A DNA stretch of 64,000 nt from a virus: the IMG/VR virus record IMGVR_UViG_3300017963_000033, positions 1 to 64,000 of that record; one strand, written 5' to 3'. The notes under the pieces are model-generated. The model did no database searches. It saw only the letters and a list, made by a program, of their open reading frames with translations, and was not told where the DNA came from. The position numbers were made by a program, and so were the translations under genes. Positions 5,886 to 47,054 of this stretch are shown one piece after another. The stretch's first letter is position 1, and every line of letters starts with the position of its first letter.

Positions 5886-5914
5886 TTGACACCCCTGCCA
5901 ACGTGTGCTATAAT
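5886..5914 (+). promoter_or_regulatory. Consensus sigma70/SigA promoter
   Basis: TTGACA-17 bp-TATAAT with extended -10 TG. Confidence 0.85.
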
Positions 5915-5979: not shown

Positions 5980-6405
5980 ATGACAAGCGCCAAGGAAAAC
6001 TGGGACGAAAAAATCAGCAACATCAGGCGGAGAGATGGCGGCTTTACAGGAGAGCCACCTGAACAGAATGTCGCTGATTCTATGAACCTTGAAGAAATCG
6101 CCGCCACAGTCCAAGACAACCCAACCCGTGTCTTTGATCTGGCAGGGGCATATTTGGAATATAGACGGGATGCAGAGGGATGCCCCTTTTGTGGTACATG
6201 GTATGCCCCTGGCGAATCCATTCCACCTGGATGCAGGGTTTGCAAGGGAACTTGTGAAGGGGCCAAGATCGCAACCGATGCGGTTGTAGCTGTAATGGAA
6301 AACCATGAGGCTCTGGAAGATAAGCAACTAGAATACTATATCAGGATTCTTGCACCTGGCTATTACCGGAGTGAATTTAGGAATCTCCTCCGCAATCGAC
6401 AATAG
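5980..6405 (+). CDS. Hypothetical zinc-finger protein
   Basis: CPFC...CRVC; directly behind its own promoter; AT-richer than neighbours. Confidence 0.7.
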   Translation: MTSAKENWDEKISNIRRRDGGFTGEPPEQNVADSMNLEEIAATVQDNPTRVFDLAGAYLEYRRDAEGCPFCGTWYAPGESIPPGCRVCKGTCEGAKIATDAVVAVMENHEALEDKQLEYYIRILAPGYYRSEFRNLLRNRQ

Positions 6406-6481
6406 CTAAAGCCCCAACGGGCCACAGCGAGGCCACAGGCGGGTGAGAGGCCGCCGCAAACGGACCTAAAGGAGGTTCACG

Positions 6482-7237
6482 ATGAAAACGGTAAATGATG
6501 GATTCCCTGGAAATCTGGACAGCACCTATTTCACGGCCACCGACTGCGAACCCTTTGTCGAGGCCAAAAGGGTGCATTACTACGATGGCAATGGCAGCCG
6601 GCGCTCCTGGGGCGCTCCCCAGGTGACCACGACCATCGTGGTGGATGAGTGCGATTTTCTGGCCCTGCACTTTGGGTTCAGCCACAAGCACCGGGGCGGT
6701 CAGGCGTGGCGCTACTATGTTATGGATAAGGGGACCCCGACGCGCAAACTCTGGCGCTCCCTCACCGACGATGAGCGGCAATTGGTCCTCGACAACGAGG
6801 ACAAGGCTCCTCGCTGGGCAAAGTCGCCTGGCAAACTGCGGGCCGATTACCGCAAGCCTACCCACACCGCGTTCACCGGCTACAAGATCCTGCGGGACAA
6901 AGGGGATGGCACATTCTCCAGCCTTTACGATGGCACGGAATGGGAAATCGGGAAGCGCAACGGGGAAGCGGTAGATCCCAGGTCTGGCAGCGATGGCTGG
7001 GGAAACCACCACCACGGCGGCGGGTTCTATGTCCACAAAGAGGTTGATTCGCTGATGAAGCTCTGGGAGCAGAGAGACCTGGTGCCTGAACGGTGCTACG
7101 AACCGGGCCAATATGCCCTGGTGGAATGCGAGTGCTCTGGACGGCAGGCACACTTTTCCAGCGGAAAGGTGGCGGTGACCTACTGCAAGCCGGTCAAGGT
7201 GCAGTCACACATCTCGCTGGAAGGAGAATTGGCATGA
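6482..7237 (+). CDS. Hypothetical protein
   Basis: AAGGAGG RBS; 251 aa. Confidence 0.8.
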   Translation: MKTVNDGFPGNLDSTYFTATDCEPFVEAKRVHYYDGNGSRRSWGAPQVTTTIVVDECDFLALHFGFSHKHRGGQAWRYYVMDKGTPTRKLWRSLTDDERQLVLDNEDKAPRWAKSPGKLRADYRKPTHTAFTGYKILRDKGDGTFSSLYDGTEWEIGKRNGEAVDPRSGSDGWGNHHHGGGFYVHKEVDSLMKLWEQRDLVPERCYEPGQYALVECECSGRQAHFSSGKVAVTYCKPVKVQSHISLEGELA

Positions 7238-7506
7238 AATGGCGACCCGCATGGTCTGAGGCCAGACGCGCCGGCCAGACGGCACGAAACCACGAACTGG
7301 CATCACGTCACCCTGGGGACCAGGGCAGCACCCTGATGGACCCCATCGAGGAGCAGGAAAAGCCATTCTGCTTCTTTTGTCAGGAGAACCGCACAACTAA
7401 GCTCAAGGTCGGCAAACTGGGCAGCAATGGATGCCTGGGCTATGGGGTGTACTGCGAAAAGTGCGGACCAGACCCAGCATCAAAGAGGGGGGAAAACCAT
7501 GGGTAA
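7234..7506 (+). CDS. Zinc-ribbon protein
   Basis: ATGA overlap; CFFC...CEKC. Confidence 0.65.
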   Translation: MKWRPAWSEARRAGQTARNHELASRHPGDQGSTLMDPIEEQEKPFCFFCQENRTTKLKVGKLGSNGCLGYGVYCEKCGPDPASKRGENHG

Positions 7507-7681
7507 ACTCTTCAAGATTCCCACCGGAGGCCGGCGGCGAGGCCGGCGCACCAATCCGATGCCCAAGATGGACTTTGAGAAATTGACGGGCATCAAGAAA
7601 GGGGACGTGATGGGGCTCAAAACGCCCTCAGCGGGCTCGGTCAAGTCCACACTCAGCTTCAAGGACTTGATCGGGTGGTAG
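7499..7681 (+). CDS. Small basic protein
   Basis: Overlapping start; Arg/Lys rich. Confidence 0.55.
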   Translation: MGKLFKIPTGGRRRGRRTNPMPKMDFEKLTGIKKGDVMGLKTPSAGSVKSTLSFKDLIGW

Positions 7682-7716
7682 CAACGCCCCGCCGTCGAGG
7701 GGCGGCGGGGCAACCT

Positions 7717-7789
7717 GGGCCGGCATGTACCAAGGGGGCGATTGGCACTTGCAATGCCGATGTGGCGGGTTCGATTCCCGCCCGGTCCA
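7717..7789 (+). tRNA. tRNA-Ala (UGC) with atypical D-arm, no encoded CCA
   Basis: Acceptor GGGCCGG/CCGGTCC with G3:U70 Ala identity and A73; anticodon arm TGGCA-CTTGCAA-TGCCG; T arm GCGGG-TTCGATT-CCCGC. Confidence 0.85.
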
Positions 7790-7830
7790 CTGGATGGATG
7801 TAAAATCAGAATCAGAAAGGAGATTGACAG

Positions 7831-8070
7831 ATGAAATTCACGAGGTATGTATTCCCCGTCAAGCAGGCAGCGGTCATGGAATCCATGCAGGACGAAAAGG
7901 TCACCGTGACCTTGACCTGGGCTGAGATCAACCTGCTGGAGGCGGCCATCAGGGTGGCCAAGGCCAGTGGTGACCTGGCAGCATACTATAGAGAACTGCG
8001 CAGCATCGAAACGGCGCTTTCCGTCGCCACGGCTGACCTGTTCGTGAAAGCAGCGGACAAGGCTGCATAA
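7831..8070 (+). CDS. Hypothetical cassette protein 1 (MKFTRYV...)
   Basis: RBS lies within repeat A. Confidence 0.75.
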   Translation: MKFTRYVFPVKQAAVMESMQDEKVTVTLTWAEINLLEAAIRVAKASGDLAAYYRELRSIETALSVATADLFVKAADKAA

Positions 8071-8129
8071 CACCAAGGGGGCATCCCGCCTGGGGTGCCC
8101 CGCAAGTAAATCAGAAAGGAGACTGACAG

Positions 8130-8366
8130 ATGAAATTCACGAGATATGCAAACCTGACCGAGGAACAGAAAGACAGGATTGTGGACTCCTATCGCTATGC
8201 CAAGTTTATGGGCTCAGATGCTGGACACGCAACCTCTTGCGCAGCAGTCAACGGCCTGGGACTGACCGACAAGCAGTGGAACGGCAAAATTGGTTCGGAT
8301 GCCTTTGCGGCAACCATGGCTGTCCTGGTGATGAGGGGGGAAATCACACTGAGCCACAGCGCCTGA
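8130..8366 (+). CDS. Hypothetical cassette protein 2 (MKFTRYA...)
   Basis: RBS lies within repeat A; shares only its first 6 residues with cassette protein 1. Confidence 0.75.
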   Translation: MKFTRYANLTEEQKDRIVDSYRYAKFMGSDAGHATSCAAVNGLGLTDKQWNGKIGSDAFAATMAVLVMRGEITLSHSA

Positions 8367-8457
8367 AACCAAGGGGGCATCCCGCCTGGGGTGCCCCGCA
8401 AGACAATCACTTTGCATAACTATTGTTAGCACAAGAAAACAGAAAGGAGATCGGGAG

Positions 8458-8631
8458 ATGAAAAGAGTACCAATGACATACAAAAGGAATATGATTTTTC
8501 GCTATTCCACGCTTGCCCCGTATCGTTGGGAATGGGGTTACTGGGACCCCTGTGGAACATTTCGGTGTGTTCGCTCTTTTCACCCAGACTTGACACTAGA
8601 CGAGTGCAAGGCAAAACTGAGGGACAAATAG
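8458..8631 (+). CDS. 57-aa cassette protein 3 (MKRVPMTY...)
   Basis: AGAAAGGAG RBS; flanked by repeat C; below the ORF-track cutoff. Confidence 0.6.
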   Translation: MKRVPMTYKRNMIFRYSTLAPYRWEWGYWDPCGTFRCVRSFHPDLTLDECKAKLRDK

Positions 8632-8694
8632 GGAGCACGATAATCACTTTGCATAACTATTTCAGCACAAGAAAACAGAAAGGACATAGATAAC

Positions 8695-9060
8695 ATGCCA
8701 AAGGACTTGGAAAAGCAGAAGGATGGGCTGCTGAATCTCATCGCGTTTGCCGTCGAAACCGATGGGTTCCAGCCGCAAACGGAAGAGCAGGAACGGAAGA
8801 TGCTGGACCTGGTGGAAAGGGTCAGGGCAGACGGTACAAATGCGCAAGACCTGCGCAGCCTGGTCCTCCTCGTGCAGGAGACCATCTCGCTGCCGTTCCT
8901 GACCGCCACCCAGGCTGCCGCATGGCTGGGCCTGGCCTACAGGACCATCCAGGATGCGATGTACCAGAAGCGGCTGCCCAGCGTCAAGATGGGCCACGAC
9001 CGCATCATCATGATGCAGGACATCCTGAAGTATCACGAAAACCGGCGCTACAGTCTGTAG
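8695..9060 (+). CDS. Excisionase-like HTH DNA-binding protein
   Basis: C-terminal LTATQAAAWLGLAYRTI...RLPSVKMG motif; immediately upstream of the recombinase. Confidence 0.75.
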   Translation: MPKDLEKQKDGLLNLIAFAVETDGFQPQTEEQERKMLDLVERVRADGTNAQDLRSLVLLVQETISLPFLTATQAAAWLGLAYRTIQDAMYQKRLPSVKMGHDRIIMMQDILKYHENRRYSL

Positions 9061-9085
9061 GCGCTGGACAGAAAGGAGACAAACC

Positions 9086-10060
9086 ATGCGCCTGCAAGAG
9101 GCGGTAGACAAATACCTCGATGACCTCGGCCTGGAGGTCAAGGCCGGCAACAAGTCCCCCGCAACCGTGCGCACCTACCGCACTGGCCTGCGCCGGTACG
9201 TGCAGGCGCTGGGGGACCCAGACCTGGATGACCTCGACGGCAATGAGGTCATCGAGTACATGCGCGGGCTGGCGCAAGAGGATCTAAAGCCGCGCACCAT
9301 CGAACTATACCTCACGGCAGTTTCTCAGTTCTATCAGTGGATGGCGCTGGAGGAGGTCATCATCCTCCCCGCAAACCAGCAGGAACGGGTGGGGGCAAAA
9401 ATGCGCAAGTGGAGAAAGGGGCGCAAAGAAAAGCGCCTGCCGCGCACACCCAACGAAGATGCCGTGCAAGCCGTGCAGGACGTGGCGCAGACCCCCGCAA
9501 AGGGGACACACACGACCGCACGGGCTGCGCAACGTGCGCGAATCTCGCGCATGAGGGACGCAGCACTGTTCGCATTCCTGCGCAGCACGGGCGCAAGGGT
9601 TTCCGAGGTTGCGAATGCCTTGCGCGACGACCTGGACCTGGAGCGCAAACGGGCGCAGGTCTACGGCAAGGGCCGCAAAGAGCGCGTTGTGTTTTTGGAT
9701 GATGCCGCAACCTGCGCCATCCGGGCGTACCTCGAAGCGCGGGACGCGGCGAACCTGCGCCGGCCCACCAAGGGGGAGGAGGCACTGTTCTCCCGACACG
9801 ACAAAAGGTCGGGCTGGGCGGTGCGGGGCATGAGCCCCAATAGCATCCGCAACGCGCTGCACAGTCTGTGCCAGGAGGCTGGCGTGGAAGGGTTCACGCC
9901 GCACCAGTTGCGGCACCGTGTAGGGGCCAGGGCCATAGGCCCTCTAGGAATCCGGGGAGTGCAAGAACTGCTGGGGCATGAAAGCCCGACGACCACGGCG
10001 CTGTATACGCATGTGGAACCGGACGCGCTGGCCGAGGCGTTTGAGGAGTTGGACCTGTAA
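9086..10060 (+). CDS. XerC/XerD-type tyrosine recombinase
   Basis: SPATVRTY N-terminal domain; catalytic TGARVSE, GKGRKER, PHQLRH, LLGH, TALYTH. Confidence 0.95.
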   Translation: MRLQEAVDKYLDDLGLEVKAGNKSPATVRTYRTGLRRYVQALGDPDLDDLDGNEVIEYMRGLAQEDLKPRTIELYLTAVSQFYQWMALEEVIILPANQQERVGAKMRKWRKGRKEKRLPRTPNEDAVQAVQDVAQTPAKGTHTTARAAQRARISRMRDAALFAFLRSTGARVSEVANALRDDLDLERKRAQVYGKGRKERVVFLDDAATCAIRAYLEARDAANLRRPTKGEEALFSRHDKRSGWAVRGMSPNSIRNALHSLCQEAGVEGFTPHQLRHRVGARAIGPLGIRGVQELLGHESPTTTALYTHVEPDALAEAFEELDL

Positions 10061-10127
10061 CATTCCAAAGGGGGAAAGGGGGGATGCCTCTTTCCCCAAA
10101 ACACATCTCAGAAAGGAGACTGAGGAA

Positions 10128-10973
10128 ATGGACGAATTGAAAGCATTGGTCGAGGAGGGAAAAGCATACTATGTGCAGCTCTCGCAACAGCGAGACCAGG
10201 AAGCGCAGGAAAAGCATGAACAGAGTATCAAGGACGCAAAGGAGGCATGGGACAACCTGACAGGCTATGTACGCAGCATCGTGCCCGAGGTTCTACATCC
10301 TTACATCAACAAATGGGATGTCCATAGTCCAGAAGCCAGACCAACAAGAGACATGAGGGCTGAAATCGTGGTGCCAAGCTGGCGTCCTATCTGGGTGAAT
10401 GTCGGACAAACAGCGCGTGAGTACGCCGAGGGAGGACCTTGGCATCTCATGACCATCTGCGTCCCATGGGCGGGTGAAGAATGCTGCATCCCAGAGTATG
10501 ACCGAGAATACTTTTTCCATGGCCCAGACGACTTTGGCTTTGCGGAAGGGGATGGGCCTTTCTATCTGGACACTCGCAACAAACAGACCTTCTCACAAGA
10601 TGAATGGCATAAAGTCTGCGCGTGGGCACAACATCATGGAACACTCCAGGCCAAGCGAGAAGAGGAGATAAAGGAGAAAAACACGGCGGCCTGGGCAGCC
10701 TATCGGGAACGACAGGCAGAGAAAGAACGCATCCAGGCCGAAACGGCTGCCGCAAAGGCAGATCCTGGCGGCCCTTCTCCTGTCCTTCCCTGGCATAGGA
10801 TGAAGGTGGCCCATGACACCCTGTTCACCGTGCAGGCCCTGGAAAAGGGAGAGGCCGCATCGGCGGCAGCACTGGTGGCCATAGCCCACATGCTCTACGC
10901 CTATCTGGAATGGGTGCATAATGACATCTGCAAGGAACCTAGGAACTTTGGGGATGGCCCACCGTTCTTGTGA
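10128..10973 (+). CDS. Hypothetical protein
   Basis: AGAAAGGAG RBS before ATG 10128. Confidence 0.75.
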   Translation: MDELKALVEEGKAYYVQLSQQRDQEAQEKHEQSIKDAKEAWDNLTGYVRSIVPEVLHPYINKWDVHSPEARPTRDMRAEIVVPSWRPIWVNVGQTAREYAEGGPWHLMTICVPWAGEECCIPEYDREYFFHGPDDFGFAEGDGPFYLDTRNKQTFSQDEWHKVCAWAQHHGTLQAKREEEIKEKNTAAWAAYRERQAEKERIQAETAAAKADPGGPSPVLPWHRMKVAHDTLFTVQALEKGEAASAAALVAIAHMLYAYLEWVHNDICKEPRNFGDGPPFL

Positions 10974-10974
10974 C

Positions 10975-11335
10975 CAATTCCGCGTCCGCCAATTGCTCAC
11001 GCCAATCTGGCGAATAGCACACGCTGGCGCGGGTTGGAATACATCTCCACCAAGGAGGAGCCGGGCGACAAAGGGGACTGGCCCACCCCACCTAAAAGGC
11101 TACCTGCTCTGACCTGCGGCAGGCGGCCAATCAAAACCAAAGGGGGGAACCCAACTGGAGACAGTGTACTGCGGTGCGAGTTTGGAATACCCCAAGGCTG
11201 GATGTGATTCCCAGCAGGTCACAAACCGCTGGGTGCGGGCATAGAGGTCGGCCCCGTAGTATCAAACCAGGTCGTGGTTGCGGGGTGTCAGTGCCATCAC
11301 CCGCGCCCAGCGGGGCGTTTGTAATGACAAACATT
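10975..11335 (+). ncRNA. Candidate structured non-coding RNA
   Basis: Gap with no credible ORF and many complementary segments, e.g. CCGCTGGGTGCGGG/CCCGCGCCCAGCGG and TGACCTGC/GCAGGTCA. Confidence 0.4.
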
Positions 11336-11338
11336 CGT

Positions 11339-11366
11339 TTTGAACTTAATGCGGATTAAGTTCAAA
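11339..11366. other. Symmetric dif/lox-like recombination site (11-6-11)
   Basis: TTTGAACTTAA-TGCGGA-TTAAGTTCAAA. Confidence 0.6.
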
Positions 11367-11413
11367 AGTCAAGGGGTCGCGCACCTACGCGCGAGAAAGG
11401 AATAACAATAGTC

Positions 11414-13869: not shown

Positions 13870-13898
13870 ATTATACCCCAAATAATGACCCCTGTCAA
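13870..13898 (-). promoter_or_regulatory. Consensus promoter for the holin cassette
   Basis: TTGACA-17-TATAAT on the minus strand. Confidence 0.8.
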
Positions 13899-13961
13899 CA
13901 GATTATACCAAGGGTTAGGAAAGTTTAACCTGGAGACTTAATCCAAGGTCAAAATTGGGTC

Positions 13962-13990
13962 TTGACAAGGGGGTGGTTCTATGCTATAAT
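13962..13990 (+). promoter_or_regulatory. Consensus promoter (divergent)
   Basis: TTGACA-17-TATAAT with extended TG. Confidence 0.85.
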
Positions 13991-14882: not shown

Positions 14883-15066
14883 CTGGAACACCTGGGCGCT
14901 ACACTATGAGGACAAGACCGTCGTCCTCACCAGCCTCATGTCCCTCGATGAGTTGTGGGAATGGTATGGGGGGCACGGCCTGCTGGACATCGTTCCCTAC
15001 AATCCCACTGAACCTGACCGGGATGATGCCCATCTGGTAAGGGGAGACCATGACGCCGACCTATGA
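14866..15066 (+). CDS. Hypothetical protein
   Basis: Fills the operon gap with overlaps at both ends. Confidence 0.5.
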   Translation: MRVDNDWNTWALHYEDKTVVLTSLMSLDELWEWYGGHGLLDIVPYNPTEPDRDDAHLVRGDHDADL

Positions 15067-16609
15067 CCGGGACTATATCTACATCCGGGATAGGCCCATC
15101 CTGCACACCACTGCCAGACGGGATTGGGTGTGCGGCACCTGTGAAAGCCCCCTCAAGGGGATCTGGCAAGACAGTCTTATGATCACCGTTTGTGCCAGGG
15201 ATGCCAGTCATCCAGTGGATGGATTCATCCACCAATCGGCCCTAGAGCGCAGGGTCCATCGAGAACTTATGTTCGGTCATGCACTGGCCGAAAAGGAAAG
15301 GAGAACTATGAGTAGACTGAAAGACCGTGACAGGGAGGATGCACCAGGAGTGCCCCTGCGGCTGAGGCTGGGGCGCGTTGGAAAGATCAGGCAGGGCGTC
15401 ATGGCCAAGAACAAGGATGGAAGAGACTACCCGCTGGCCACACCCTATTTCATCATCGAACCGGCAACTACTATCAAAGAGGACAAATATCGAATCCTGT
15501 CGGAGGTCAGGGCTGCGATTGATGCCCTTGTCCCTGGGCAGGATCTGGAAAAGCCCACTGTGTTGCCCATCATCTTCCTCATCAACGATGATGCGATGAT
15601 TGCCCCCGAGTCCTACAAACTCAGGCGCGGCAAAAAGGGGACTGTCTGGTGTGCCGGCAACGGCGAGACCATCCTGTGGAAGCTGGATGACCAATTCCGA
15701 GTTGAGGTCAGCCAGGGGGTCCACGTCAAAACGGGCGAGATCCTGCGTTGCCCAGGAGGGGACAGGGACCATGAGCGCCACCCCTGGTGTGAGGAGTGCA
15801 ACGGCGAGTTTGAACTGAACTTTGCCATCCAGGGCTATGACCGCAGCGGCGTGTGGCTGCTGCGCACCAAGAGCATGAACTTCCGGGACCAGTTTTGGCC
15901 TCAACTGGCCATCGCCCGAGGGTTTGTCCAGCGAGGCGTGGTGCCCACTCTGGCCGATGTGCCGTTCTTGCTGCGCCGGCAGAAAGAATCTATTACGGCT
16001 CCAGTAGGGGCGAACAAAGGTTTGTCCACTGTCGAGATGCCCATCACGTCCATCGAAATCGAACCCGGATTCCTCAAGTGGGCCAGGGGACGGCAGCAAC
16101 GGATGGTTCAGGCGTTGCAGGCCGGGGAAGTGCTGGCCCTCTCGTCAGGGGAAGAGGGATGGCCAGAGGATGAGGAGGACGGATATATCGACGGGGAAGT
16201 GGACGTGCTGCCCGAGACAATGGAGGAGGCAAATAAACCAGCCGACGAACCCGCCCCGCCCCAGCCCAAACCAGAACCCAAAAAGCCTGCGCCCCGTGCA
16301 AGTAAGCTGGCCCCATCCCCGCGAGAGGCAGCGCCCAGGCGTGGTGCGCAAGCCAAGGAGAAACAGGACCAGCCGGTGGATGAGAAGGCTCCCCCGCCGC
16401 CGACGAACCCGGAAACGCTGAAAACCTCCATCAACTGGGTGACCAGCGGAAAGTACGACACGGTGGGGGATGTCTTGAAGGCGCTGAGGCGCATCTTCTC
16501 GAACAACAAGTACACCTGGCCGGTCAACGAACCAGAAGCATACCCTGAACTTCTGACCTTGTTGGTCCAGGACCACCAGGCCAGCGAGGACGCCAAGAAG
16601 GACAAGTGA
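15050..16609 (+). CDS. Gp3-like / recombination directionality factor-like protein (possible internal start at 15308)
   Basis: RLGRVGKIRQG...YP...YF motif and Cys cluster; acidic, Pro-rich tail; second RBS AAAGGAG before MSRLKD. Confidence 0.6.
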   Translation: MTPTYDRDYIYIRDRPILHTTARRDWVCGTCESPLKGIWQDSLMITVCARDASHPVDGFIHQSALERRVHRELMFGHALAEKERRTMSRLKDRDREDAPGVPLRLRLGRVGKIRQGVMAKNKDGRDYPLATPYFIIEPATTIKEDKYRILSEVRAAIDALVPGQDLEKPTVLPIIFLINDDAMIAPESYKLRRGKKGTVWCAGNGETILWKLDDQFRVEVSQGVHVKTGEILRCPGGDRDHERHPWCEECNGEFELNFAIQGYDRSGVWLLRTKSMNFRDQFWPQLAIARGFVQRGVVPTLADVPFLLRRQKESITAPVGANKGLSTVEMPITSIEIEPGFLKWARGRQQRMVQALQAGEVLALSSGEEGWPEDEEDGYIDGEVDVLPETMEEANKPADEPAPPQPKPEPKKPAPRASKLAPSPREAAPRRGAQAKEKQDQPVDEKAPPPPTNPETLKTSINWVTSGKYDTVGDVLKALRRIFSNNKYTWPVNEPEAYPELLTLLVQDHQASEDAKKDK

Positions 16610-19536: not shown

Positions 19537-20064
19537 ATGATCTGGACTATCTCGCACAGAGCCGACTCCGCAGCATTGCCAATCGCGGACAGGCATTACA
19601 ATCGCCAAAAGCCGGGAACGCCGCAATTTGTCCCGCCTGGGCGCTGCCTGGTCTTGCTGACAGACGACAGAACGGCGCTTTGGGTCACATCCTGGCCTTT
19701 TGCAAAATATGTTAAACACGCATGGCCAGGCGCTTGGATCAATTCGCTTTTTCGCAATGAGGGACAATATAAAGCCAGCGAACTAATCCGCAGCGCCGTC
19801 GCTGTTACTATAAGTTTTTGGCCCAATGTGCCAGAGTTGGGAATGATCACCTTCATTGATCCCCGACACGTCAAGCCAATCAAAAGGCGAGGCCACGACA
19901 CGTGGGGCTATACTTACCTCAAGGCAGGATTTGAGCCAGCCACCCCAGCGACAACTGCTGGCGGATTACTCGCTTTCCAGATGACGCCCGACCGAATGCC
20001 TAAACCAGCCCTGGCAATAGGTCAACAAATAAAATTGGGTCTTGACAGGTGCTGGAAACTGTGA
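19537..20064 (+). CDS. Putative Mom-like GNAT DNA-modification enzyme
   Basis: ADRHYNRQ...QFVPPG, SLFRNEG..ASELI, ITFID and GYTYLKAGF motifs recalled for Mom-like phage proteins. Confidence 0.55.
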   Translation: MIWTISHRADSAALPIADRHYNRQKPGTPQFVPPGRCLVLLTDDRTALWVTSWPFAKYVKHAWPGAWINSLFRNEGQYKASELIRSAVAVTISFWPNVPELGMITFIDPRHVKPIKRRGHDTWGYTYLKAGFEPATPATTAGGLLAFQMTPDRMPKPALAIGQQIKLGLDRCWKL

Positions 20065-20070
20065 TATACT
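20042..20070 (+). promoter_or_regulatory. Promoter of the replication operon
   Basis: TTGACA-17-TATACT with TG. Confidence 0.8.
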
Positions 20071-24726: not shown

Positions 24727-25475
24727 TGCCGACAACGCTTTACAATGGAGACATCGAACTGGACTTTGACGCGAGGAAACACACCTACACCCTAAACGGG
24801 ATCAAGGTGCCCAGTGTCACAAAAATCACAGGAGTCCTTGACAAGCCCGCCCTCCAACATTGGGCGGTGAACACGACCCTGGACCATCTCAGGGACACCC
24901 TCCAGGCAGACACCCCATACACGGCTGAACAGATCCAGGGCATCCTCGATGATGCCAAGGGAGCCAGGTGGCGGCAGTCCAGGGAGGCGCTGAACATCGG
25001 CGGGGATGCCCACGATTGGATTGAACGCTACGTCAAGGCCAAACTCCTGAACATCTCAGGGGCCGAGATGCCCACCTATCCCCCTACCCTGGCAGCCGTC
25101 AAATCCTTTCTGGCATGGGAACAGGAGCACGAGGTCCACTGGGTTGCCTCCGAGCGCAAGGTCTATTCCAGGCTGCACAACTATTGCGGCACCCTCGATG
25201 CCCTGGCCGTGCTGAATGGGGTCCTGACCGTAATTGACTTCAAGACATCGTCTGGGATCTATCCAGAGATGTACTTGCAGGTCGTCGCCTACGCCCAGGC
25301 GGTAGGCGAGGAGGACGGCATCACCATCGGGGACGTGGCTATCGTGCGCATCCCCAAGGATGGGGAGATGGTAGAGGTTGCCATGTCGGCTGACAGCGGT
25401 CAGACGATGATGCAACTGTTCACTACGTTCCTGCACTGCCTGGGGATCTACCAGTGGAAGGAGGCAACCAAATGA
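24726..25475 (+). CDS. PD-(D/E)XK exonuclease
   Basis: PSVTKI, G...H, SE..V, GTLD, IDFKT and LQVVAY motifs. Confidence 0.85.
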   Translation: MPTTLYNGDIELDFDARKHTYTLNGIKVPSVTKITGVLDKPALQHWAVNTTLDHLRDTLQADTPYTAEQIQGILDDAKGARWRQSREALNIGGDAHDWIERYVKAKLLNISGAEMPTYPPTLAAVKSFLAWEQEHEVHWVASERKVYSRLHNYCGTLDALAVLNGVLTVIDFKTSSGIYPEMYLQVVAYAQAVGEEDGITIGDVAIVRIPKDGEMVEVAMSADSGQTMMQLFTTFLHCLGIYQWKEATK

Positions 25476-25639
25476 CTGTATCAAAGGTACTCATTATTTT
25501 ATGTTCCTTTTTCCTAGCCTATACAGTCAAAATATTACTTTTTCCTAACGATTCTGAAAGATATAAACAGGCTGTTGGCTTGCTATCTATATCTACAATC
25601 TTGGCACTGGTTGCCTATTTTGTCCAAGTGGCGGTATGA
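25472..25639 (+). CDS. Small two-TM protein (moron)
   Basis: Very AT-rich; RBS lies within the repeat. Confidence 0.6.
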   Translation: MTVSKVLIILCSFFLAYTVKILLFPNDSERYKQAVGLLSISTILALVAYFVQVAV

Positions 25640-25643
25640 TCAA

Positions 25644-25940
25644 ATGTCCACACTACTCGACATCGGCAGCACATTCGACTGGATCACGCCGCTCATAGCA
25701 ATGATTCGGGATGTGGTAGACGGGCCGTCTCACACCTTCATTATCCCCTATGATTGTGGATGGAGCGGAAGAGAGATTGTTCGATTACTCAAGAGACGGG
25801 GTGTTAGCAGTTGGGGACACATGATTGTCAATCAGCAGTTTATGATCACAGTGCGACAACAGCAAGCACAATGGGCTTATCATATCCTGACACGGGCAGG
25901 GATTTCCGTAGAGTATAGAGTCACTGACAATACGGGATAG
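25644..25940 (+). CDS. Hypothetical protein (moron)
   Basis: Lies between the direct repeats. Confidence 0.6.
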   Translation: MSTLLDIGSTFDWITPLIAMIRDVVDGPSHTFIIPYDCGWSGREIVRLLKRRGVSSWGHMIVNQQFMITVRQQQAQWAYHILTRAGISVEYRVTDNTG

Positions 25941-25996
25941 ATTGATCCCCTGCATTGTCTGGGGATCTACTAGTGGAAGGAGGCAACTAGTAGACT

Positions 25997-27313: not shown

Positions 27314-27342
27314 AGTATACCCCACTTTCCCAAAGATGTCAA
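27314..27342 (-). promoter_or_regulatory. Promoter for the tRNA-like gene
   Basis: TTGACA-17-TATACT on the minus strand. Confidence 0.75.
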
Positions 27343-27351
27343 ATTGGGGTC

Positions 27352-27380
27352 TTGACAGGCGCTGGAATCTGTGATATACT
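27352..27380 (+). promoter_or_regulatory. Promoter of the FtsK module
   Basis: TTGACA-17-TATACT; near copy of the promoter at 20042. Confidence 0.8.
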
Positions 27381-32759: not shown

Positions 32760-33393
32760 GGACAGGCACTGGGCCTGACCAGAAAGGAGACTCTGAATGA
32801 GTGAGCGTTTAGGAGGATGCGCGGAGGCGTTGCGCGTCGTGGCCTTGATTGTGTTGGTAGTTGGCCTTGTCGTCCTCATCGGGCTGGGCATCATCGTTTA
32901 TGGAGATGCCCATGAGAAGCGGAGTGCCGCCATCGACACTCAGGCCAGGGAGAAAACAGCCCAGACGGAGATTGCCTGGAACGGGATAACCGAACGCACC
33001 GCCACCGAAGAGGAAGGCAAGACTAAGCGCACTGCCATCGAAGAGGAAGGCAAGACTGAGCGCCAGTTGAACCAGTTGAACCATGAGAAATTTCTACTGA
33101 TCTGGGCAGAACAATCCTGGGAACAACGGCTTGTCATGTTGGCTGAAATCACCAGAGGTATGACCTCAGAGGAGCGCCAAGCACTCCTGCACATGATGAA
33201 CGCCTATGAGGCTGGAAACACTGCTGAGGATCGCAATTGGACCCAAATCTTCGCCTGGGCATGGGCAATCTTCGGTGCCATCCTGGTGTTTTGGTTCCTG
33301 GGACGCCCATTGCTCAAGCGGGTCTTTATCTCTATGCCATGGGGATGGTAGTGAGCAGTGGTGGACAGGCACTGGGCCTGACCAGAAAGGAGA
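32760..33393 (+). repeat. 31-bp perfect direct repeats (32760-32790 / 33363-33393) flanking one gene
   Basis: GGACAGGCACTGGGCCTGACCAGAAAGGAGA, two copies. Confidence 0.9.
32797..33351 (+). CDS. Membrane protein
   Basis: N- and C-terminal TM; internal RTA.EEEGKT repeat. Confidence 0.7.
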   Translation: MSERLGGCAEALRVVALIVLVVGLVVLIGLGIIVYGDAHEKRSAAIDTQAREKTAQTEIAWNGITERTATEEEGKTKRTAIEEEGKTERQLNQLNHEKFLLIWAEQSWEQRLVMLAEITRGMTSEERQALLHMMNAYEAGNTAEDRNWTQIFAWAWAIFGAILVFWFLGRPLLKRVFISMPWGW

Positions 33394-33451: not shown

Positions 33452-33490
33452 GAGACCGGGGCTACCATCATGGTAGCCCCGGTCTTTTTT
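33452..33490 (+). terminator. Rho-independent terminator between convergent arms
   Basis: AGACCGGGGCTACCA-TCA-TGGTAGCCCCGGTCT followed by a T-run. Confidence 0.85.
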
Positions 33491-34115: not shown

Positions 34116-35260
34116 ACTGTCTCACTTCTGGTCCACAATTCTGCCTTGCCTTCGATGACTTCCTCATTCTGCCCGTCGATGGCCCCGGCGACCTCGGTGA
34201 TCCTCATGTCATATTCATTGCCCCACAACACCAGGGTCACCAGATCCCCCAAGGCCCAATCTCTCCCATACAAACACCACTCTGTCTGGACCGGCTTGAA
34301 TGTGACAGTGGTGATGGCCCCCAGGTCCACCAGGTACTGCTCCAGGATGTCAGGAACACTGTCGATGCTTGCTGTGTCTGAGACATCCACATAATCCTCA
34401 CGGCGACGGTAGGGACTCTCTGCGATGGCATCACTGTTTTCGGCCTCGACAATGTCCTGCTCTCCTCCCCCTCCCTCCCAGCCGCCATAGAGATAGGTCA
34501 CTTCCTGAGTCCGACTTACCCCGACGAATGGTTCCAGCACGTTCTCAAATTCAAGGCTAAAGATGGTGGGATTGGCGGCATATCCTTTCCTGCGGTCGGT
34601 GCCATAGTAGGGACAGTAGGTGCGGAACTCAAAGCCATCACTGACGCGCACCACCCGAAAGTCGGTTTGCCATGTTTCCCCGGCCAGTGTCTTTACAGCC
34701 GTTAGGAGCCTATCATAGCGCCCCTCGTAGCAGCCATACGTTCCCTCGCCTCGGTTGCCCTCCACAGAAAAGTTGCTGAACTGCCTTTCCAGCGCAGCCC
34801 CGCCCCCCATGGACTCTGAAACCATGGCCTTCATCACATCATCGGCAGGTCCAAACATCCACCAGATGCCATAGTCCCGCCACTGCTGCGAGGCGCTGGG
34901 CACAGGAGTCAGGACGGGTTGGTCTATCAACCACTCAGGACTCATGCCGGTGCTGGCCCAGTAATGCTCGTCAAACTGCCCCGTCATCAATTCTTCTGGA
35001 TTGTGGTGAAACCCATAGAATTCCTCATAGTAGCCTGAACCATAGTCCCGCTCTACGAGGATGCCATAATCCACCCGAAAGAGGTCTTTGGTATCTGTCT
35101 CGGCTACGAATTCGGCCCGGTAGACGGTGGCATCGTTCAGCTTGTGATGCCAGGCGATGGATAGGAAGTCGGATTCGTGAACCCCACTGGCATGGAGGAG
35201 GGCCAGCTTGGAGCCGGTCCAATCGCACAGCCACACCTGGTACTGGGCAAACTCAGGCAT
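34112..35260 (-). CDS. Siphovirus minor tail / baseplate hub protein (ReqiPepy6 Gp37-like)
   Basis: YGRDWALGDLVT, RREDYVD and FSLEFENV motifs. Confidence 0.75.
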   Translation of the reverse strand: MPEFAQYQVWLCDWTGSKLALLHASGVHESDFLSIAWHHKLNDATVYRAEFVAETDTKDLFRVDYGILVERDYGSGYYEEFYGFHHNPEELMTGQFDEHYWASTGMSPEWLIDQPVLTPVPSASQQWRDYGIWWMFGPADDVMKAMVSESMGGGAALERQFSNFSVEGNRGEGTYGCYEGRYDRLLTAVKTLAGETWQTDFRVVRVSDGFEFRTYCPYYGTDRRKGYAANPTIFSLEFENVLEPFVGVSRTQEVTYLYGGWEGGGGEQDIVEAENSDAIAESPYRRREDYVDVSDTASIDSVPDILEQYLVDLGAITTVTFKPVQTEWCLYGRDWALGDLVTLVLWGNEYDMRITEVAGAIDGQNEEVIEGKAELWTRSETV

Positions 35261-36275
35261 CGGCAGTCCAGCTCATCTCAATCCCGAGCAGTCGCATGGC
35301 GCTGTTGTAACTGTCGGCTGCGCCGTCTCGGTCCAGTTTGATGATGATGATGTCGCCGGCATTGATGGCGAACGCGGCGATGAGCTGATCCCGGTAGACA
35401 GTGGTATTGACCCTGGCCTGCTGGTCTGGGGTGATGGTGCCATTGGTGTTGGCCAGGGTCCCCCCATAGGGACCGGCATAGGTGTTATAGTCCCACTGGC
35501 ACAATTCCGCTCCACCCCCAGCTCCATTCACATCTGGCACCGACCAGACATAAATGTCTACCTGGGCGCTCACCAGCCCTGTGGGAGCCATAAAGTAAAC
35601 CCATCCCGTGTTGGTTGCGGCATCCACAAACTCCCAATAATCATAGGATGCACCCGCCGTCCAGGTGCAGGGATTCGTGCTATCGGGCTCAATTTCCCCA
35701 GAACCCTTGATCTCGTAGCGTGTCCGGTCTGGAACTTTGACCGGCGTCACCGCACCCAGGGCATAGTGCTCCGTGTCCACGGCATTGGCTGGCCATTCCG
35801 TGGTCCATTGGCAATATTCCCTGGTGTCGGTCAGGGTGATGGCCCCGGCTGCATTCACTAGCACGGTGGCCAGGGGCACTTCGTAGATGGCCCCGGCTCC
35901 CTGGGTCAGCGCCGGCACGGCAGGGACAGCAGCCTCCGTCCCAACTACCCTTCCGATTCGGGCTGTCTGAATAGACCAATCCCGCCGCACGACAATGCGG
36001 TCATAGCGCGATGTGCCGGCGCTTGGCGTGGGGATGTTGACTGTCACCCCGGCGTCGTTCTCGTAGAACATGCCATAGATGATAGCCGCCCCTGTGTCCA
36101 CGCTGACCGGACTGGAGGCCCCAGTGATGGCCAACTCATTCAGCCAACCACGGAGTACCCCCCGGTTTCCGGTGCCATTCAAGAGCGCCCGGAAAAAGGT
36201 ATCCATCATGTGGCTTTGTGTATAGGGGCCACCATCCCCTGCAACCCCATCCCAGAACATGCTCGTTTGCGCCAT
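35253..36275 (-). CDS. Baseplate/receptor-binding protein, paralog 3
   Basis: Shared N-domain FWDG...GVL.GWLNEL...YEND...RYDRIVVRRDW...PLA. Confidence 0.7.
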   Translation of the reverse strand: MAQTSMFWDGVAGDGGPYTQSHMMDTFFRALLNGTGNRGVLRGWLNELAITGASSPVSVDTGAAIIYGMFYENDAGVTVNIPTPSAGTSRYDRIVVRRDWSIQTARIGRVVGTEAAVPAVPALTQGAGAIYEVPLATVLVNAAGAITLTDTREYCQWTTEWPANAVDTEHYALGAVTPVKVPDRTRYEIKGSGEIEPDSTNPCTWTAGASYDYWEFVDAATNTGWVYFMAPTGLVSAQVDIYVWSVPDVNGAGGGAELCQWDYNTYAGPYGGTLANTNGTITPDQQARVNTTVYRDQLIAAFAINAGDIIIIKLDRDGAADSYNSAMRLLGIEMSWTADA

Positions 36276-36276
36276 G

Positions 36277-37269
36277 TCAGCTATCCGCCGTGTATTCGAG
36301 TTCGATCAGGTGGACAAAGGAATTGTATCCGAGTGTGTCCCCACCGGCTGCTCCGTCACGGTAAACTTCCATGTGGACAATGTCTCCCGCTGATAGAGTC
36401 AGTGTGGTCAAGGCATCCCGATACATATAATCATGCAGCCGATTATCATTGGCAATAGCCAGGGTTCCTGCCTGATTGGCCAATACAGCACTGGGCTGCG
36501 CATCCCAAGAACTCCATCCCCACAAGACATCGCCGGCAACAACAACATCCGACCCTGGGCTATTCCAGACATAAAGTGTCATCGTGGCGCTGCTGATGTC
36601 GGATGGCACACGAAAGGTAACCCATATTGTGTTCAGCGCGGCAGCAGAAAAGCTCCATGCAGGGAAATAGGGCACTCTCGTTGTCTGGGGATAGTTGGTT
36701 GGCGGATTGGTTGCATCTGGCTCCATGGCCCCATAGGGAAAGTAGACAGACCGCGCCTGGTTCTCCAGCTTTGCCGTCGTCACCGCATCGTTCTGAATGT
36801 GGTCTGTCTCAACCACATTGTCCTGCAAAATAGTGCTGAACTCACAGAAATCACGACCATCGGTGATCAGTGTGATGATTCCTGCCAAGGTAGTGACCTG
36901 GGCCAGGGGGATGTCGTAGGTCACCCCTGGGTTCTGCACCAGGGCCGCCACCTGGGTCAGCCTAGCCTGTGGCGTAGCCCAGTCTCTGCGCACGACCACC
37001 CACACCGTTGAGTTGTTGGGTAACGCCACGGTGGCGGCTGCATCATTCTGGTAGAACAGGCCATAGAGGATACCCCCTCCAGTATCCACACTGGCATTGA
37101 GGGCACCCCCGTCAGTGACCTCCAATTCATTCAGCCAGCCCTTGAGGACTCCTTGATTTCCGGTGCCGTTCAGGAGTGCCCGAAAGAAGCGGTCCATCAA
37201 TTCATCATCGGTGATGCTGACCGCATCTCCTGTGGCGCTCCCATCCCAGAACCTACTGCGCTCTGTCAT
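36277..37269 (-). CDS. Baseplate/receptor-binding protein, paralog 2
   Basis: Same N-domain. Confidence 0.7.
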   Translation of the reverse strand: MTERSRFWDGSATGDAVSITDDELMDRFFRALLNGTGNQGVLKGWLNELEVTDGGALNASVDTGGGILYGLFYQNDAAATVALPNNSTVWVVVRRDWATPQARLTQVAALVQNPGVTYDIPLAQVTTLAGIITLITDGRDFCEFSTILQDNVVETDHIQNDAVTTAKLENQARSVYFPYGAMEPDATNPPTNYPQTTRVPYFPAWSFSAAALNTIWVTFRVPSDISSATMTLYVWNSPGSDVVVAGDVLWGWSSWDAQPSAVLANQAGTLAIANDNRLHDYMYRDALTTLTLSAGDIVHMEVYRDGAAGGDTLGYNSFVHLIELEYTADS

Positions 37270-38366
37270 TACAGATACCCTGTGTAGACCAATTCAATGC
37301 CTAGAACCAGAGAGGTTGCAGGGCTAGAATCTGCCTCGATGACATACAGGACAACCTCCTCACCAGTAAGATTGGTGACGCTCATCAACTGATCCCTGCC
37401 CACGGTGCCATTCACTGCCGTTGTACTGCAAGCCACTGTTTCATAGTCTCCAGAATAGGTAACTGGACCCCCATCCACATAATGTTGCCAAGCACTGTTG
37501 ACCTGACCCAGATTGCTGCCATCGTACATCCACCATAGGTATACGTCGATGTCTCCCGAGGCCCAGTCATCAGGCACCTTGAAGGACCAATGGCCCATCG
37601 GGTCAAAGTTTACAGTTGCCGTCCAGCCCTCCTCAGAAACTGCGGCGGACTGCCAGACAAAGGCTGTGGTTCCCCCAATTAGCCTCGCTGCGGCAGAATA
37701 GGAAAACTGAGTGCTGGTTGGAGCAGTAGGCGATGGCTGCATATTCCCACCGCCCAGGAATTTCCGCTTGGTTCTTGTCGCTCGGGCGTTATCGTCTACA
37801 GACTCATTGGTCAAGTGCGCCGTGGCAAACGCATCATCCTGTGGATAGACGGTGAACGTCACAAACTCCCGCGCATCGGTGACGGTGATCACCCCGCCCG
37901 TGGTCACCTGCAAGGTCGCCAGGGGAATGTCCCAGATCCCCGTCCCATCTGGGGCCGCACTCTGGGTCATGGCTGGCACACCACTGCCCTCTATCCCGGC
38001 AATTCGTGTGATCCTCGCCGTCTGTGCTGCCCAATCCCGCCGCACGACAATCCGGTCATAGCGCGTGTCGCTGGAAGGGCTGGGCACCGCCACATTCAGG
38101 CTGGCATCATTCTCATAGTACAGGCCATAGACGATGGCCGCCCCTGTGTCCACTGCCACTGGGGTAGCTACGCCAGTCACCGCCAATTCGTTCAACCAGT
38201 TGGCCAGGACACCCCGGTTGCCATCCCCATTCCACAGCGCCCGACCCATGATGTCCACCCAGGGGGACTCATAGTCCTCGTGGGCCATGTGGTAGCCCCC
38301 ATTGGGCGTCCAGGTATCGGCATCTCCCAGGCTTGCGCCGTTCCAAAAGAACGATTTCTGGGTCAT
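37269..38366 (-). CDS. Baseplate/receptor-binding protein, paralog 1
   Basis: Same N-domain; start MTQKSFFW. Confidence 0.7.
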   Translation of the reverse strand: MTQKSFFWNGASLGDADTWTPNGGYHMAHEDYESPWVDIMGRALWNGDGNRGVLANWLNELAVTGVATPVAVDTGAAIVYGLYYENDASLNVAVPSPSSDTRYDRIVVRRDWAAQTARITRIAGIEGSGVPAMTQSAAPDGTGIWDIPLATLQVTTGGVITVTDAREFVTFTVYPQDDAFATAHLTNESVDDNARATRTKRKFLGGGNMQPSPTAPTSTQFSYSAAARLIGGTTAFVWQSAAVSEEGWTATVNFDPMGHWSFKVPDDWASGDIDVYLWWMYDGSNLGQVNSAWQHYVDGGPVTYSGDYETVACSTTAVNGTVGRDQLMSVTNLTGEEVVLYVIEADSSPATSLVLGIELVYTGYL

Positions 38367-39292
38367 GTGCCCAAAACCTCCACATACCAACAGACCTGCA
38401 CGGTGGTCGTCAGGTTGACCGCGCTGCCGGCGCTCCACCAGGTCAGGGCGTTGGCCCCCGGCTCTAAGGTGAACGTGCCAAAGTCACCGCCCACATAGGT
38501 AATCAGATTCGTGCCCGCACCATTCTGGACAGTCTTGTCCGGGATGTTCAAAGTCACCGTCTCGCCGGCAGAGATGGTGTAGCCATCCCATTGCAGTACC
38601 GCCCCATTGGCGGCGTTTGTCAGTGTCCAGTCCTCGGTCGGCCCGGTGATGGCAATGACCGGCTTTGTCTCCCAGGACCCATCATTGTTCGCTGTCAGGG
38701 TCGCTGTGCTAACCGTAGTGCCCAGCAAAAATGGCCCGGTGAATGCCAATTCTAGTTCTGCGTTCTGGGTCAAGGTGCTGGTCGAGACACAGGTCCTGCC
38801 ACTCGCATCCCGCGTTTCCCCCACATCCAATGGGCTGTTGACCCACTTGGGAATAGGATCGTAGGCAGTCAAGACCACAGTTCCAGTCTGTACCAACGGC
38901 GTGGGTTGTTCCTGGCTGGACAGGTCATATCCTCCCGTCACCCACACGTTCTGGTACTCAAACTTGAGTCCGTCCGGGGTGATGAGCCGCAGGATATGCG
39001 CTCCATTCTGCGGACTCAACATCTCGATGTTGGCCCGGCGCTTGGCATACATATCCCCGCGTCCACATCCCCGCAGGTAGAGAACCAGGTTGATCACCCT
39101 GGGCCGAACGGCATAGCCCCAGTGGCTCTCACCAACCTGGAATGGTGCCCGCGTGGTCCAATGCTGGATAGGCGGCATTCCCAGTCCCGAGACCTGCTGC
39201 CCCAACCGTCCAGGGAACGACAGGGGATAAACAACCCCATTGGCGTCCTCCAGTTCCAGTTCTGGTGCAGGTCGGTATCCTCGCAGCCTCAT
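38363..39292 (-). CDS. Distal tail (Dit) protein
   Basis: Follows the tape measure; GLGMPP, A.DP, NDGS..T.P.I.ITGP, L.PG.N motifs. Confidence 0.8.
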   Translation of the reverse strand: MRLRGYRPAPELELEDANGVVYPLSFPGRLGQQVSGLGMPPIQHWTTRAPFQVGESHWGYAVRPRVINLVLYLRGCGRGDMYAKRRANIEMLSPQNGAHILRLITPDGLKFEYQNVWVTGGYDLSSQEQPTPLVQTGTVVLTAYDPIPKWVNSPLDVGETRDASGRTCVSTSTLTQNAELELAFTGPFLLGTTVSTATLTANNDGSWETKPVIAITGPTEDWTLTNAANGAVLQWDGYTISAGETVTLNIPDKTVQNGAGTNLITYVGGDFGTFTLEPGANALTWWSAGSAVNLTTTVQVCWYVEVLGT

Positions 39293-46694: not shown

Positions 46695-47054
46695 TTATCC
46701 CCCCTGCGTATGTTCGTGCCACACGATGCGTCCCCCATAGGAGAGTAACATCGCCGCTCCGCTCAGAGCCAGCGGCAGCAACACAGGCCACCATAGCAAC
46801 CCAAACAGCGCACAGAACGCGCCGGCCCACAGGGAGATGCACCAGAAGCAGGATAACTGCTTTCCCCAGAATCCCCGGTATTGTTCCTCTTTGTAGACCC
46901 CAGACCGATAGCGCAGTCGTTCAAATACATCCTTGGGACCCGCCTCCATGTAGAACATGACCGCCACGCGCCAAGTGGCCAGGACCATCACCGCTGCCTG
47001 GACAGGCCCCACGGTCAGATATTCTCTGAGAATGTCCCACCACTCAAGCCCCAT
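46695..47054 (-). CDS. DUF1360-like membrane protein
   Basis: LATWRV...GP..VF..LR...LSCFWCISLW. Confidence 0.7.
   Translation of the reverse strand: MGLEWWDILREYLTVGPVQAAVMVLATWRVAVMFYMEAGPKDVFERLRYRSGVYKEEQYRGFWGKQLSCFWCISLWAGAFCALFGLLWWPVLLPLALSGAAMLLSYGGRIVWHEHTQGG

Follow-up and report, generated by a model that had tools for sequence, protein, structure and literature searches.

In T4-type phages, the modules known as PeSLs combine a stem-loop (GGGG...CCCC), a promoter, and a Shine-Dalgarno (SD) sequence, and they lie around ORFans (PMC2839356, Arbiol et al. 2010). Crossovers at PeSLs map between the SD sequence or the ATG and the -10 box, and they are accompanied by mini-circles that can be detected by inverse PCR (PMC2839356). 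This shuffling may need only the general recombination of the phage, with less than 50 bp of homology (PMC2839356; PMC4122927, Comeau et al. 2014). Classical morons, the accessory genes of temperate phages, are independent transcription units (PMC3594210, "The moron comes of age"). Here we describe a row of three small genes (gene1, gene2, and gene3) that is bounded by three kinds of short direct repeat (A, B, and C) and is followed by genes for an excisionase-like protein (xis) and a tyrosine recombinase (int). The row lies in the viral record IMGVR_UViG_3300017963_000033, and the window that we analyzed is bases 1-64000 of this 79,319-bp record. Among known systems, the PeSL cassettes of T4-type phages are the closest to it.

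Our preferred explanation, to which we give a probability of about 0.6, is that the small genes sit in PeSL-like cassettes without promoters, each built from a stem-loop and a translation-initiation region, and that these cassettes are shuffled by homologous recombination and not by the integrase. It is somewhat probable that the repeats are portable expression signals rather than recombinase sites. In our favored view, accessory genes form a small hyperplastic block here, within an early rightward operon. An earlier note on this DNA had interpreted the locus as one of cassette capture or shuffling. Our analysis leaves shuffling through repeated regulatory elements as the likely part of that interpretation and makes capture by the recombinase unlikely.

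Layout of the locus

Across positions 7810-10060, the order is A-gene1-B-A-gene2-B-C-gene3-C-xis-int (Table 1), and every element was found where the earlier note had placed it, including gene3 between the two copies of C. The copies of A are 40 nucleotides (nt) long and 95% identical. The copies of B are 49 nt long and 90% identical, with a core that is identical at 35/35 positions. The copies of C align as blocks of 27 nt (93% identity) and 24 nt (96%) with a 1-nt indel between them; copy 2 differs from copy 1 by a 1-nt deletion and three substitutions. B and C have two matches each in the window (versus 0.00 expected), and across all 79,319 bp of the genome, B, C, and the part of A that is specific to this locus occur exactly twice each. 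The first copy of B and the second copy of A (B1 and A2) together make up one 77-nt intergenic module, a stem-loop plus an initiation region (8072-8148).

To define local direct repeats, we required at least 20 nt, at least 85% identity, and a separation of no more than 1.5 kb. The genome has 15 of these, as compared to 0-1 in each of ten Markov shuffles. We considered an assembly artefact and rejected it: the sequence of the B1-A2 junction is unique and must therefore exist in the reads, the repeats are shorter than the reads, and identical proteins are found on three contigs.

Table 1. Features of the small-gene locus and of similar sites in the same genome. Coordinates are positions in the record. 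HTH, helix-turn-helix; ORF, open reading frame; aa, amino acids.
Feature	Position	Strand	Description
Sigma-70 consensus promoter	5886-5914	+	TTGACA, 17 nt, TATAAT, with TG; 12/12 matches
tRNA-Ala(UGC) gene	7717-7790	+	Found by ARAGORN; within the operon, 19 nt upstream of A1
Repeat A, copy 1 (A1)	7810-7849	+	Extended SD sequence, spacer, ATG, 5 codons (MKFTRY)
Gene1	7831-8070	+	79 aa, small helical protein, no family
Repeat B, copy 1 (B1)	8065-8113; identical core 8072-8106	+	Hairpin stem 8078-8087 with 8092-8101
Repeat A, copy 2 (A2)	8109-8148	+	Initiation region of gene2
Gene2	8130-8366	+	78 aa, four-helix bundle model
Repeat B, copy 2	8361-8409; identical core 8368-8402	+	Hairpin stem 8374-8383 with 8388-8397
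Repeat C, copy 1	8398-8451	+	AT-rich leader, ends in the SD sequence of gene3
Gene3	8458-8631	+	57 aa, ORFan
Repeat C, copy 2	8635-8687	+	Leader of the xis-like gene
Excisionase-like HTH gene (xis)	8695-9060	+	121 aa, sub-threshold family matches
Tyrosine recombinase/integrase gene (int)	9086-10060	+	324 aa
ORF281	10128-10973	+	281 aa, no family; final gene of the operon
Second repeat-insert-repeat case	25430-25996	+	39-48-nt copies at 25430-25477 and 25949-25996
Third case	32760-33393	+	31-nt leader plus ribosome site, 100% identical, at 32760-32790 and 33363-33393
Fourth case	78879/79278		Two adjacent small genes with a common 24-nt initiation region and two codons

The small genes

Repeat search, BLASTP, and profile comparison all agree with the earlier description of genes 1 and 2 as having a common ribosome-binding site, the same first residues (MKFTRY), and the same 35-bp downstream hairpin around unrelated bodies. 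By BLASTP, MKFTRY is all that the two proteins have in common, the bodies do not align at the DNA level, and a profile-profile comparison of the two families (hhalign) gives a probability of just 0.2% and classifies them as unrelated. If the genes were instead old paralogs from a tandem duplication, then their bodies would have drifted while the regulatory ends were conserved. The near-equal units (299 and 296 nt; 79 and 78 amino acids) would fit such an origin, as would the models of both proteins, which are small and all-helical. But drift does not account for homology that drops abruptly from 95-100% to background at both edges of the A/B units. The profile comparison also argues against this scenario, as do the separate relatives of the two families, which differ in their N-termini. 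On these comparisons, duplication followed by divergence appears to be largely refuted, and we consider it to be highly improbable.

The relatives indicate which family the shared start belongs to. A full-library search identified two relatives of gene1, namely P0125 (66% identity, 72 amino acids) and P0126 (41%). Both of them start at a position that aligns with residue 8-9 of gene1, and the 7-residue extension KFTRYVF is absent. The sole relative of gene2, P0122 (55%), begins with MNKFTRYANLT, and KFTRYANLT is native there. Because P0122 has the hexapeptide and P0125 and P0126 do not, the hexapeptide and its initiation region are native to the gene2 family and were moved in frame to gene1. 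In other words, A1 is a gene2-type initiation region and six codons that were fused in frame to gene1. There is no in-frame ATG in gene1 between the start codon and M16.

The structure model of gene1 is helical (predicted local distance difference test, or pLDDT, of 70), but its residues 1-8 have pLDDT under 50 and are predicted to be disordered. The four-helix bundle of gene2 is modeled with confidence (pLDDT of 86.5). Neither model matched a structure in the PDB at E <= 0.001 (Foldseek), and genes 1-3 have no family in Pfam, PHROGs, NCBIfam, or PADLOC. Searching the ESM Atlas with the small proteins returned only unnamed viral clusters at 0.86, and gene3 finds only itself among 5.8 billion proteins. 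The composition of gene3 is foreign and atypical of the genome (46% G+C versus 57%).

The repeats as expression signals

Repeat A extends from -21 to +19 around the ATG. It contains the ribosome site, the start codon, and codons 2-6, and its extent is about what an initiating ribosome covers. Its first ~13 nt (AATCAGAAAGGAG) belong to the standard ribosome-site context of this genome and not to this locus in particular. The core of A, CAGAAAGGAG, occurs 35 times in the window with at most one mismatch (versus 4.4 expected), mostly just upstream of gene starts on the + strand. Similarly, CAGAAAGG has 25 copies on the + strand versus 4 on the - strand, and many of the + copies are ~8-12 nt upstream of predicted starts. 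The SD sequence within A (AGAAAGGAG) would pair with a 16S rRNA whose 3' tail ends in ...CCUCCUUUCU.

Such shared starts could be explained by selection instead of mobility. The initiation region, the hexapeptide, and the hairpin would then have been kept as functional operators or tags in a static, co-regulated array. A translational repressor of the T4 RegA type might bind such an operator, for example, or the N-terminal tag might resemble the capsid-targeting sequence of the T4 internal proteins. This would account for three adjacent genes whose initiation region is more specific than the genome consensus (the region of gene3 matches A at 21/24 nt). The lone substitution between A1 and A2 within the shared codons is synonymous (AGG versus AGA), and another adjacent gene pair has a common initiation region and two codons (the fourth case in Table 1). 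On the other hand, the relatives of gene1 apparently function without the extension, which the model predicts to be disordered, and neither an RNA hairpin nor an operator needs 35/35 identity that includes the loop and the unpaired flanks. Selection also leaves unexplained an orphan ribosome site (33363-33393) and a decayed repeat copy (25949-25996), which are described below. We therefore consider a static array to be unlikely, although selection is compatible with our preferred explanation and is only partly a rival to it.

Repeat B starts 2 nt past the stop codon of both gene1 and gene2. It can form a hairpin with a 10-bp GC-rich stem and a 4-nt loop (-22.4 kcal/mol, centroid). The stem is perfect, with no bulges, and it includes one G-U pair, which is formed only in the + sense RNA. 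There is no U-tract after B, unlike the canonical terminators at the ends of operons in this genome (33452-33490 and 11698-11729). Other GC-rich hairpins without a U-tract follow neighboring genes (for example, at 7686-7711 and about 10069-10097). Judging from these features, B is more likely to be an element for RNA stability or processing than a terminator.

Repeat C, which ends at the SD sequence, has 31-33% G+C in a genome with 57%. It is unstructured (z scores of -0.5 and +1.0 for the two copies). We rejected the idea that C is a sigma-70 promoter: the promoter scan missed it even though the phage has promoters that match the consensus at 12 of 12 positions. A possible role for C is as a translational leader or as a regulatory region that depends on an activator.

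The integrase and candidate recombination sites

The integrase contains a Phage_integrase domain (E = 5e-28) and a SAM-like N-terminal core-binding domain, with no arm-binding domain. It matches phrog_1, and the catalytic R..K..HxxR..H..Y columns are invariant in the alignment. Its relative P0002 (62% identity), like P0122 and P0125, is encoded on a short contig. The adjacent HTH protein resembles excisionases at a sub-threshold level (HTH_17, E = 1e-4 and 22.9 bits versus a cutoff of 27; TIGR01764, 24.9 bits versus 28.8; phrog_66).

An integrase-driven system, similar to an integron or to pdif modules, would recognize the repeats, chiefly B in the manner of attC, and would capture and excise units of [A-gene-B]. 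A tyrosine recombinase that is predicted to be catalytically complete is present, and the densest cluster of boundary repeats in the genome is directly upstream of xis-int. Furthermore, B is located downstream of ORFs, as attC is, and can be read as a 9-6-9 dyad with 8/9 matches; by its architecture, B seems to be the sole element that is not excluded as a recombinase site. However, the repeats are of three unrelated kinds, and gene3 has no copy of B. As dyads, A and C are no more symmetric than shuffled controls (the best arm match of 0.56-0.67 equals the shuffled median, as does the automated dyad score of C). We also rejected C as a dif-like 11-6-11 site, as its arms, compared by hand, match at just 6/11 positions in copy 1 and 5/11 in copy 2, and the putative spacer is 1 nt shorter in copy 2. 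The attC R-box motifs GTTRRRY and RYYYAAC are absent from 7700-8760. The perfect stem of B lacks bulges and R/L boxes, and its G-U pair points to a role in RNA. The right boundary of A is 19 nt inside a coding sequence.

The integrase scores 68 bits on the integron-integrase model TIGR02249 (cutoff 265) and 37 on PRK15417 (cutoff 435), and only residues 238-311 align. It is also below the cutoffs for XerA (153/220), XerC (150/335), XerD (146/330), and XerS (95/267). By these scores, it appears to be Xer-like in domain make-up only and not an equivalog of XerC, XerD, XerA, or IntI. Near the integrase there is a single perfect palindrome with a short spacer (13-4-13, at 11338-11367), and it is unrelated to A, B, or C. 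This palindrome is AT-rich and unique in the window, and the non-coding sequence that holds it extends for ~440 nt downstream of the int operon. In its architecture, it is a better candidate than A, B, or C for a recombinase site or an operator. Finally, the same pattern of repeats is found 15-70 kb away with unrelated repeat sequences (see below). Given three unrelated repeat kinds, the lack of dyads in A and C, the lack of R-boxes, and an integrase below the cutoffs, we view stockpiling of cassettes by the recombinase, which the earlier note had raised, as very unlikely. Its statement that the locus is not a classical integron stands, as the integrase is far below the cutoff and there are neither R-box motifs nor an attC structure.

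A further idea is that a phage protein runs a dedicated, hairpin-directed exchange of cassettes, with the B-A module and the C leader as its substrates. The actor would be either the Xer-like recombinase together with the HTH protein, acting on the B dyad, or a pair of nucleases (RuvC and the Cas4-like nuclease). If true, this would be a promoter-less "translation-cassette" analogue of an integron in a temperate phage, and it would also explain why repeats pile up beside xis-int. We think that there is little chance that such a system exists here.

The same pattern elsewhere in the genome

Repeats also flank inserted sequence far from the integrase. In the second case, at 25.4 kb, the repeat consists of the last ~45 nt of the gene for a Cas4-like nuclease and the next ribosome site, duplicated 519 nt downstream. 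The insert has 36-45% G+C and contains a 55-amino-acid hydrophobic ORF, among others. In the second copy, the 3' end of the Cas4-like gene has decayed and contains in-frame stops, while the ribosome site is kept. In the third case, at 32.8 kb, the repeats flank a gene for a 184-amino-acid membrane protein (32797-33351). The downstream copy, although identical at 31/31 positions, is an orphan ribosome site with no ORF, and the U-tract terminator at 33452-33490 follows it. This orphan site looks like a scar of gene insertion or deletion at an initiation region. The fourth case is the pair of small genes with a common start (78879-79301), one of which runs across the genome end. In the same part of the genome, the non-coding region at 77821-78111 has iteron-like direct repeats (21 nt twice, 124 nt apart, and 20 nt twice, 80 nt apart).

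The second, third, and fourth cases lie 15-70 kb away from the integrase, each with a repeat sequence unrelated to the others. The right edges of the repeats at C, at 25.4 kb, and at 32.8 kb are at or just after the SD sequence, as expected if homology stops where different genes begin. In this one genome, several indirect signs suggest that the modules may be breakpoints: the chimeric 5' end of gene1, the orphan copy of a ribosome site, and the decayed copy of a gene end. Overall, the nature of the repeats as expression signals, the sharp edges of homology, the chimeric gene1, the composition of gene3, and the recurrence of the pattern far from the integrase support the comparison with T4-type shuffling that the earlier note had drawn.

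A model for gene gain and loss

With lengths of 31-77 nt and near-identity between copies, the repeats could act as short patches of homology, and small genes would enter and leave the genome by homologous recombination at these patches. In the simplest case, a single crossover would insert a circle that contains a gene and either a leader or a B-A module, which would give the arrangement repeat-gene-repeat, and the reverse crossover would delete the gene as a mini-circle. For example, a circle of [A-gene1 body-B] that recombined with a resident A-gene2-B would yield exactly A-gene1-B-A-gene2-B, and a circle of [C-gene3] that crossed into the xis leader would yield C-gene3-C-xis. The catalysts could be the host's RecA or enzymes from the phage. 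The phage encodes a RuvC resolvase (E = 1.4e-12) and has a weak match to a Cas4-like nuclease, and these could act on patches of 30-80 nt. We infer both the recombination pathway and the circular intermediates from the arrangement of the repeats. The closeness to the integrase is presumably explained by a dispensable region of the moron type rather than by the integrase acting as the catalyst.

Several points weigh against this model. First, five of the ~9 pairs of gene-boundary repeats are within 0.9 kb directly upstream of xis-int; this cluster is non-random, and the model explains it only by dispensability. Second, the 9-6-9 dyad of B (8/9 matches) has an architecture that a tyrosine recombinase could in principle use. 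Third, identical copies of the integrase, gene2, and gene3 are each found on three contigs, which fits with fixed gene content; this is a weak objection, as the contigs may be re-assemblies of one sample. Fourth, the origin of the first repeat-gene-repeat unit is outside the reach of the circle model and is not explained. Finally, we infer gain, loss, or swapping at the locus from one genome, and the proposed roles of B and C derive from sequence alone.

Genome and operon context

The source record is an IMG/VR virus of 79,319 bp with direct terminal repeats (123 bp) and a CheckV completeness of 100. It encodes tail genes, a tape-measure gene, a large terminase, and an FtsK-like ATPase. Together with the terminal repeats and the CheckV result, these genes imply that this is a complete tailed-phage genome. 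The phage is uncultured and temperate. Scans of IMG/VR with the integrase, the gene1-family alignment, and the large terminase found no relatives, and blastn of 6400-11400 against the INPHARED phages found no match. IMG/VR was also scanned for exact patterns of B, C, and the locus-specific part of A, with 0 matches each. In JGI metagenomes, the best match to the integrase alignment was at 37% identity; these matches were generic XerD-like genes and were not used.

The promoter at 5886, which is 1.9 kb upstream of the small genes, is the likely driver of the rightward operon that holds the whole locus. On the + strand, the promoter scan found no other consensus promoter before 13962. Because the 5886 promoter is the only consensus promoter upstream on this strand, the small genes, xis, and int are probably transcribed together. 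The operon would extend from this promoter through the tRNA-Ala gene and genes 1-3 to xis-int and ORF281. A GC-rich hairpin (about 10069-10097) lies ahead of ORF281, whose ribosome site shares a 16-nt context with that of gene2.

Promoters that match the consensus at 12/12 positions are at 5886 (+), 13898 (-), and 13962 (+), with related promoters at 20031 and 27341. This family of near-perfect sigma-70 promoters covers 5886-5914, 13870-13898 (-), 13951-13990, 20031-20070, and 27341-27380, and three of its members have a common 40-nt context (AAAATTGGGTCTTGACA...TATAMT). Such promoters imply a host with a canonical sigma-70 and appear to mark the starts of operons.

The tRNA-Ala(UGC) has the G3:U70 identity pair, but its D arm is atypical and it scores only 25 bits with Rfam. 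Processing of this tRNA would cut the operon transcript just upstream of gene1. Among 185,579 species genomes, a 25-nt pattern from the tRNA's 3' end matched four scattered metagenome-assembled genomes (from Clostridiales and the candidate phyla radiation), and a 31-nt pattern had 0 matches. No plausible host tRNA was matched, and we rejected this approach to the host or attB as uninformative.

Three other regions are worth recording. Among the virion genes, at 47044-55818 (-), are genes for sugar modification: a 1038-amino-acid multi-glycosyltransferase, a DegT/DnrJ aminotransferase (E = 9e-83), and an NAD-dependent epimerase (E = 7e-50). This set suggests glycan modification of the virion or of the host surface. 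In a 519-amino-acid early protein (15050-16609), there is a Gp3-like recombination-directionality-factor domain (PF18897, E = 2e-16), even though the integrase of this phage belongs to the tyrosine and not to the serine recombinases. At 35253-38438 (-), three paralogous tail genes stand in tandem, with segments that are 70-74% identical and ~1 kb apart.

Implications

If our preferred explanation is correct, then large lytic phages of the T4 type are not alone in shuffling small accessory genes by way of repeated expression signals. Such shuffling would also take place in a temperate phage that carries an integrase, with a module that consists of an RNA hairpin and a ribosome-binding region and has no promoter. 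The in-frame transplant at the start of gene1, with a leader and six codons taken from a neighbor, shows how a foreign ORF can be added to a phage operon and be translated immediately. The locus also carries a warning for annotation: small ORFs that are followed by a hairpin and lie next to a tyrosine recombinase do not suffice to identify an integron.

Comparison with known systems

The locus is like integrons and pdif modules in that small promoter-less ORFs in one orientation lie beside a tyrosine recombinase, and a hairpin repeat is downstream of two of the ORFs. It fails the defining features of both. In an integron, intI is divergent and is associated with attI and Pc, whereas this integrase gene is downstream of the small genes and in the same orientation, and its product is not IntI by curated cutoffs. 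There are no R-box motifs or bulged attC-type structures, gene3 has no hairpin, and there are three different direct repeats instead of one type of site. The pdif modules of Acinetobacter plasmids have XerC/XerD sites (28-bp, XerC-6-XerD) in alternating orientation. Here, such 11-6-11 sites are absent, all of the repeats are direct, the copies of C differ in spacer length, and the recombinase is neither XerC nor XerD.

As with morons, these are small accessory genes of atypical composition (gene3 and the 25.5-kb insert) that lie between resident genes, including beside the integration module. Morons differ in being transcribed on their own, whereas no sigma-70 promoter or U-tract terminator was found for these genes. 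They seem to borrow the transcription of the operon and to bring translation signals only.

There are also differences from PeSLs. The module has no sigma-70 promoter, the cassettes are inside one operon, and the stem-loop, which has no U-tract, probably does not terminate transcription. One repeat extends 19 nt into coding sequence, so that the protein has a chimeric N-terminus. There are only two copies of each repeat, as compared to the spread of PeSLs through the hyperplastic regions of RB49 and phi1, and this phage is temperate, about 79 kb, and integrase-bearing. Swapping and circles are known for PeSLs, whereas at this locus they are proposed. Nevertheless, in both systems, short composite intergenic modules run from a GGGG...CCCC stem-loop to an SD sequence and an ATG (here, 8072-8148) and are repeated around small ORFans, with edges of homology at or near the SD sequence or the ATG. 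The repeat-gene-repeat arrangement fits with excision and insertion of mini-circles through patches shorter than 50-80 bp.

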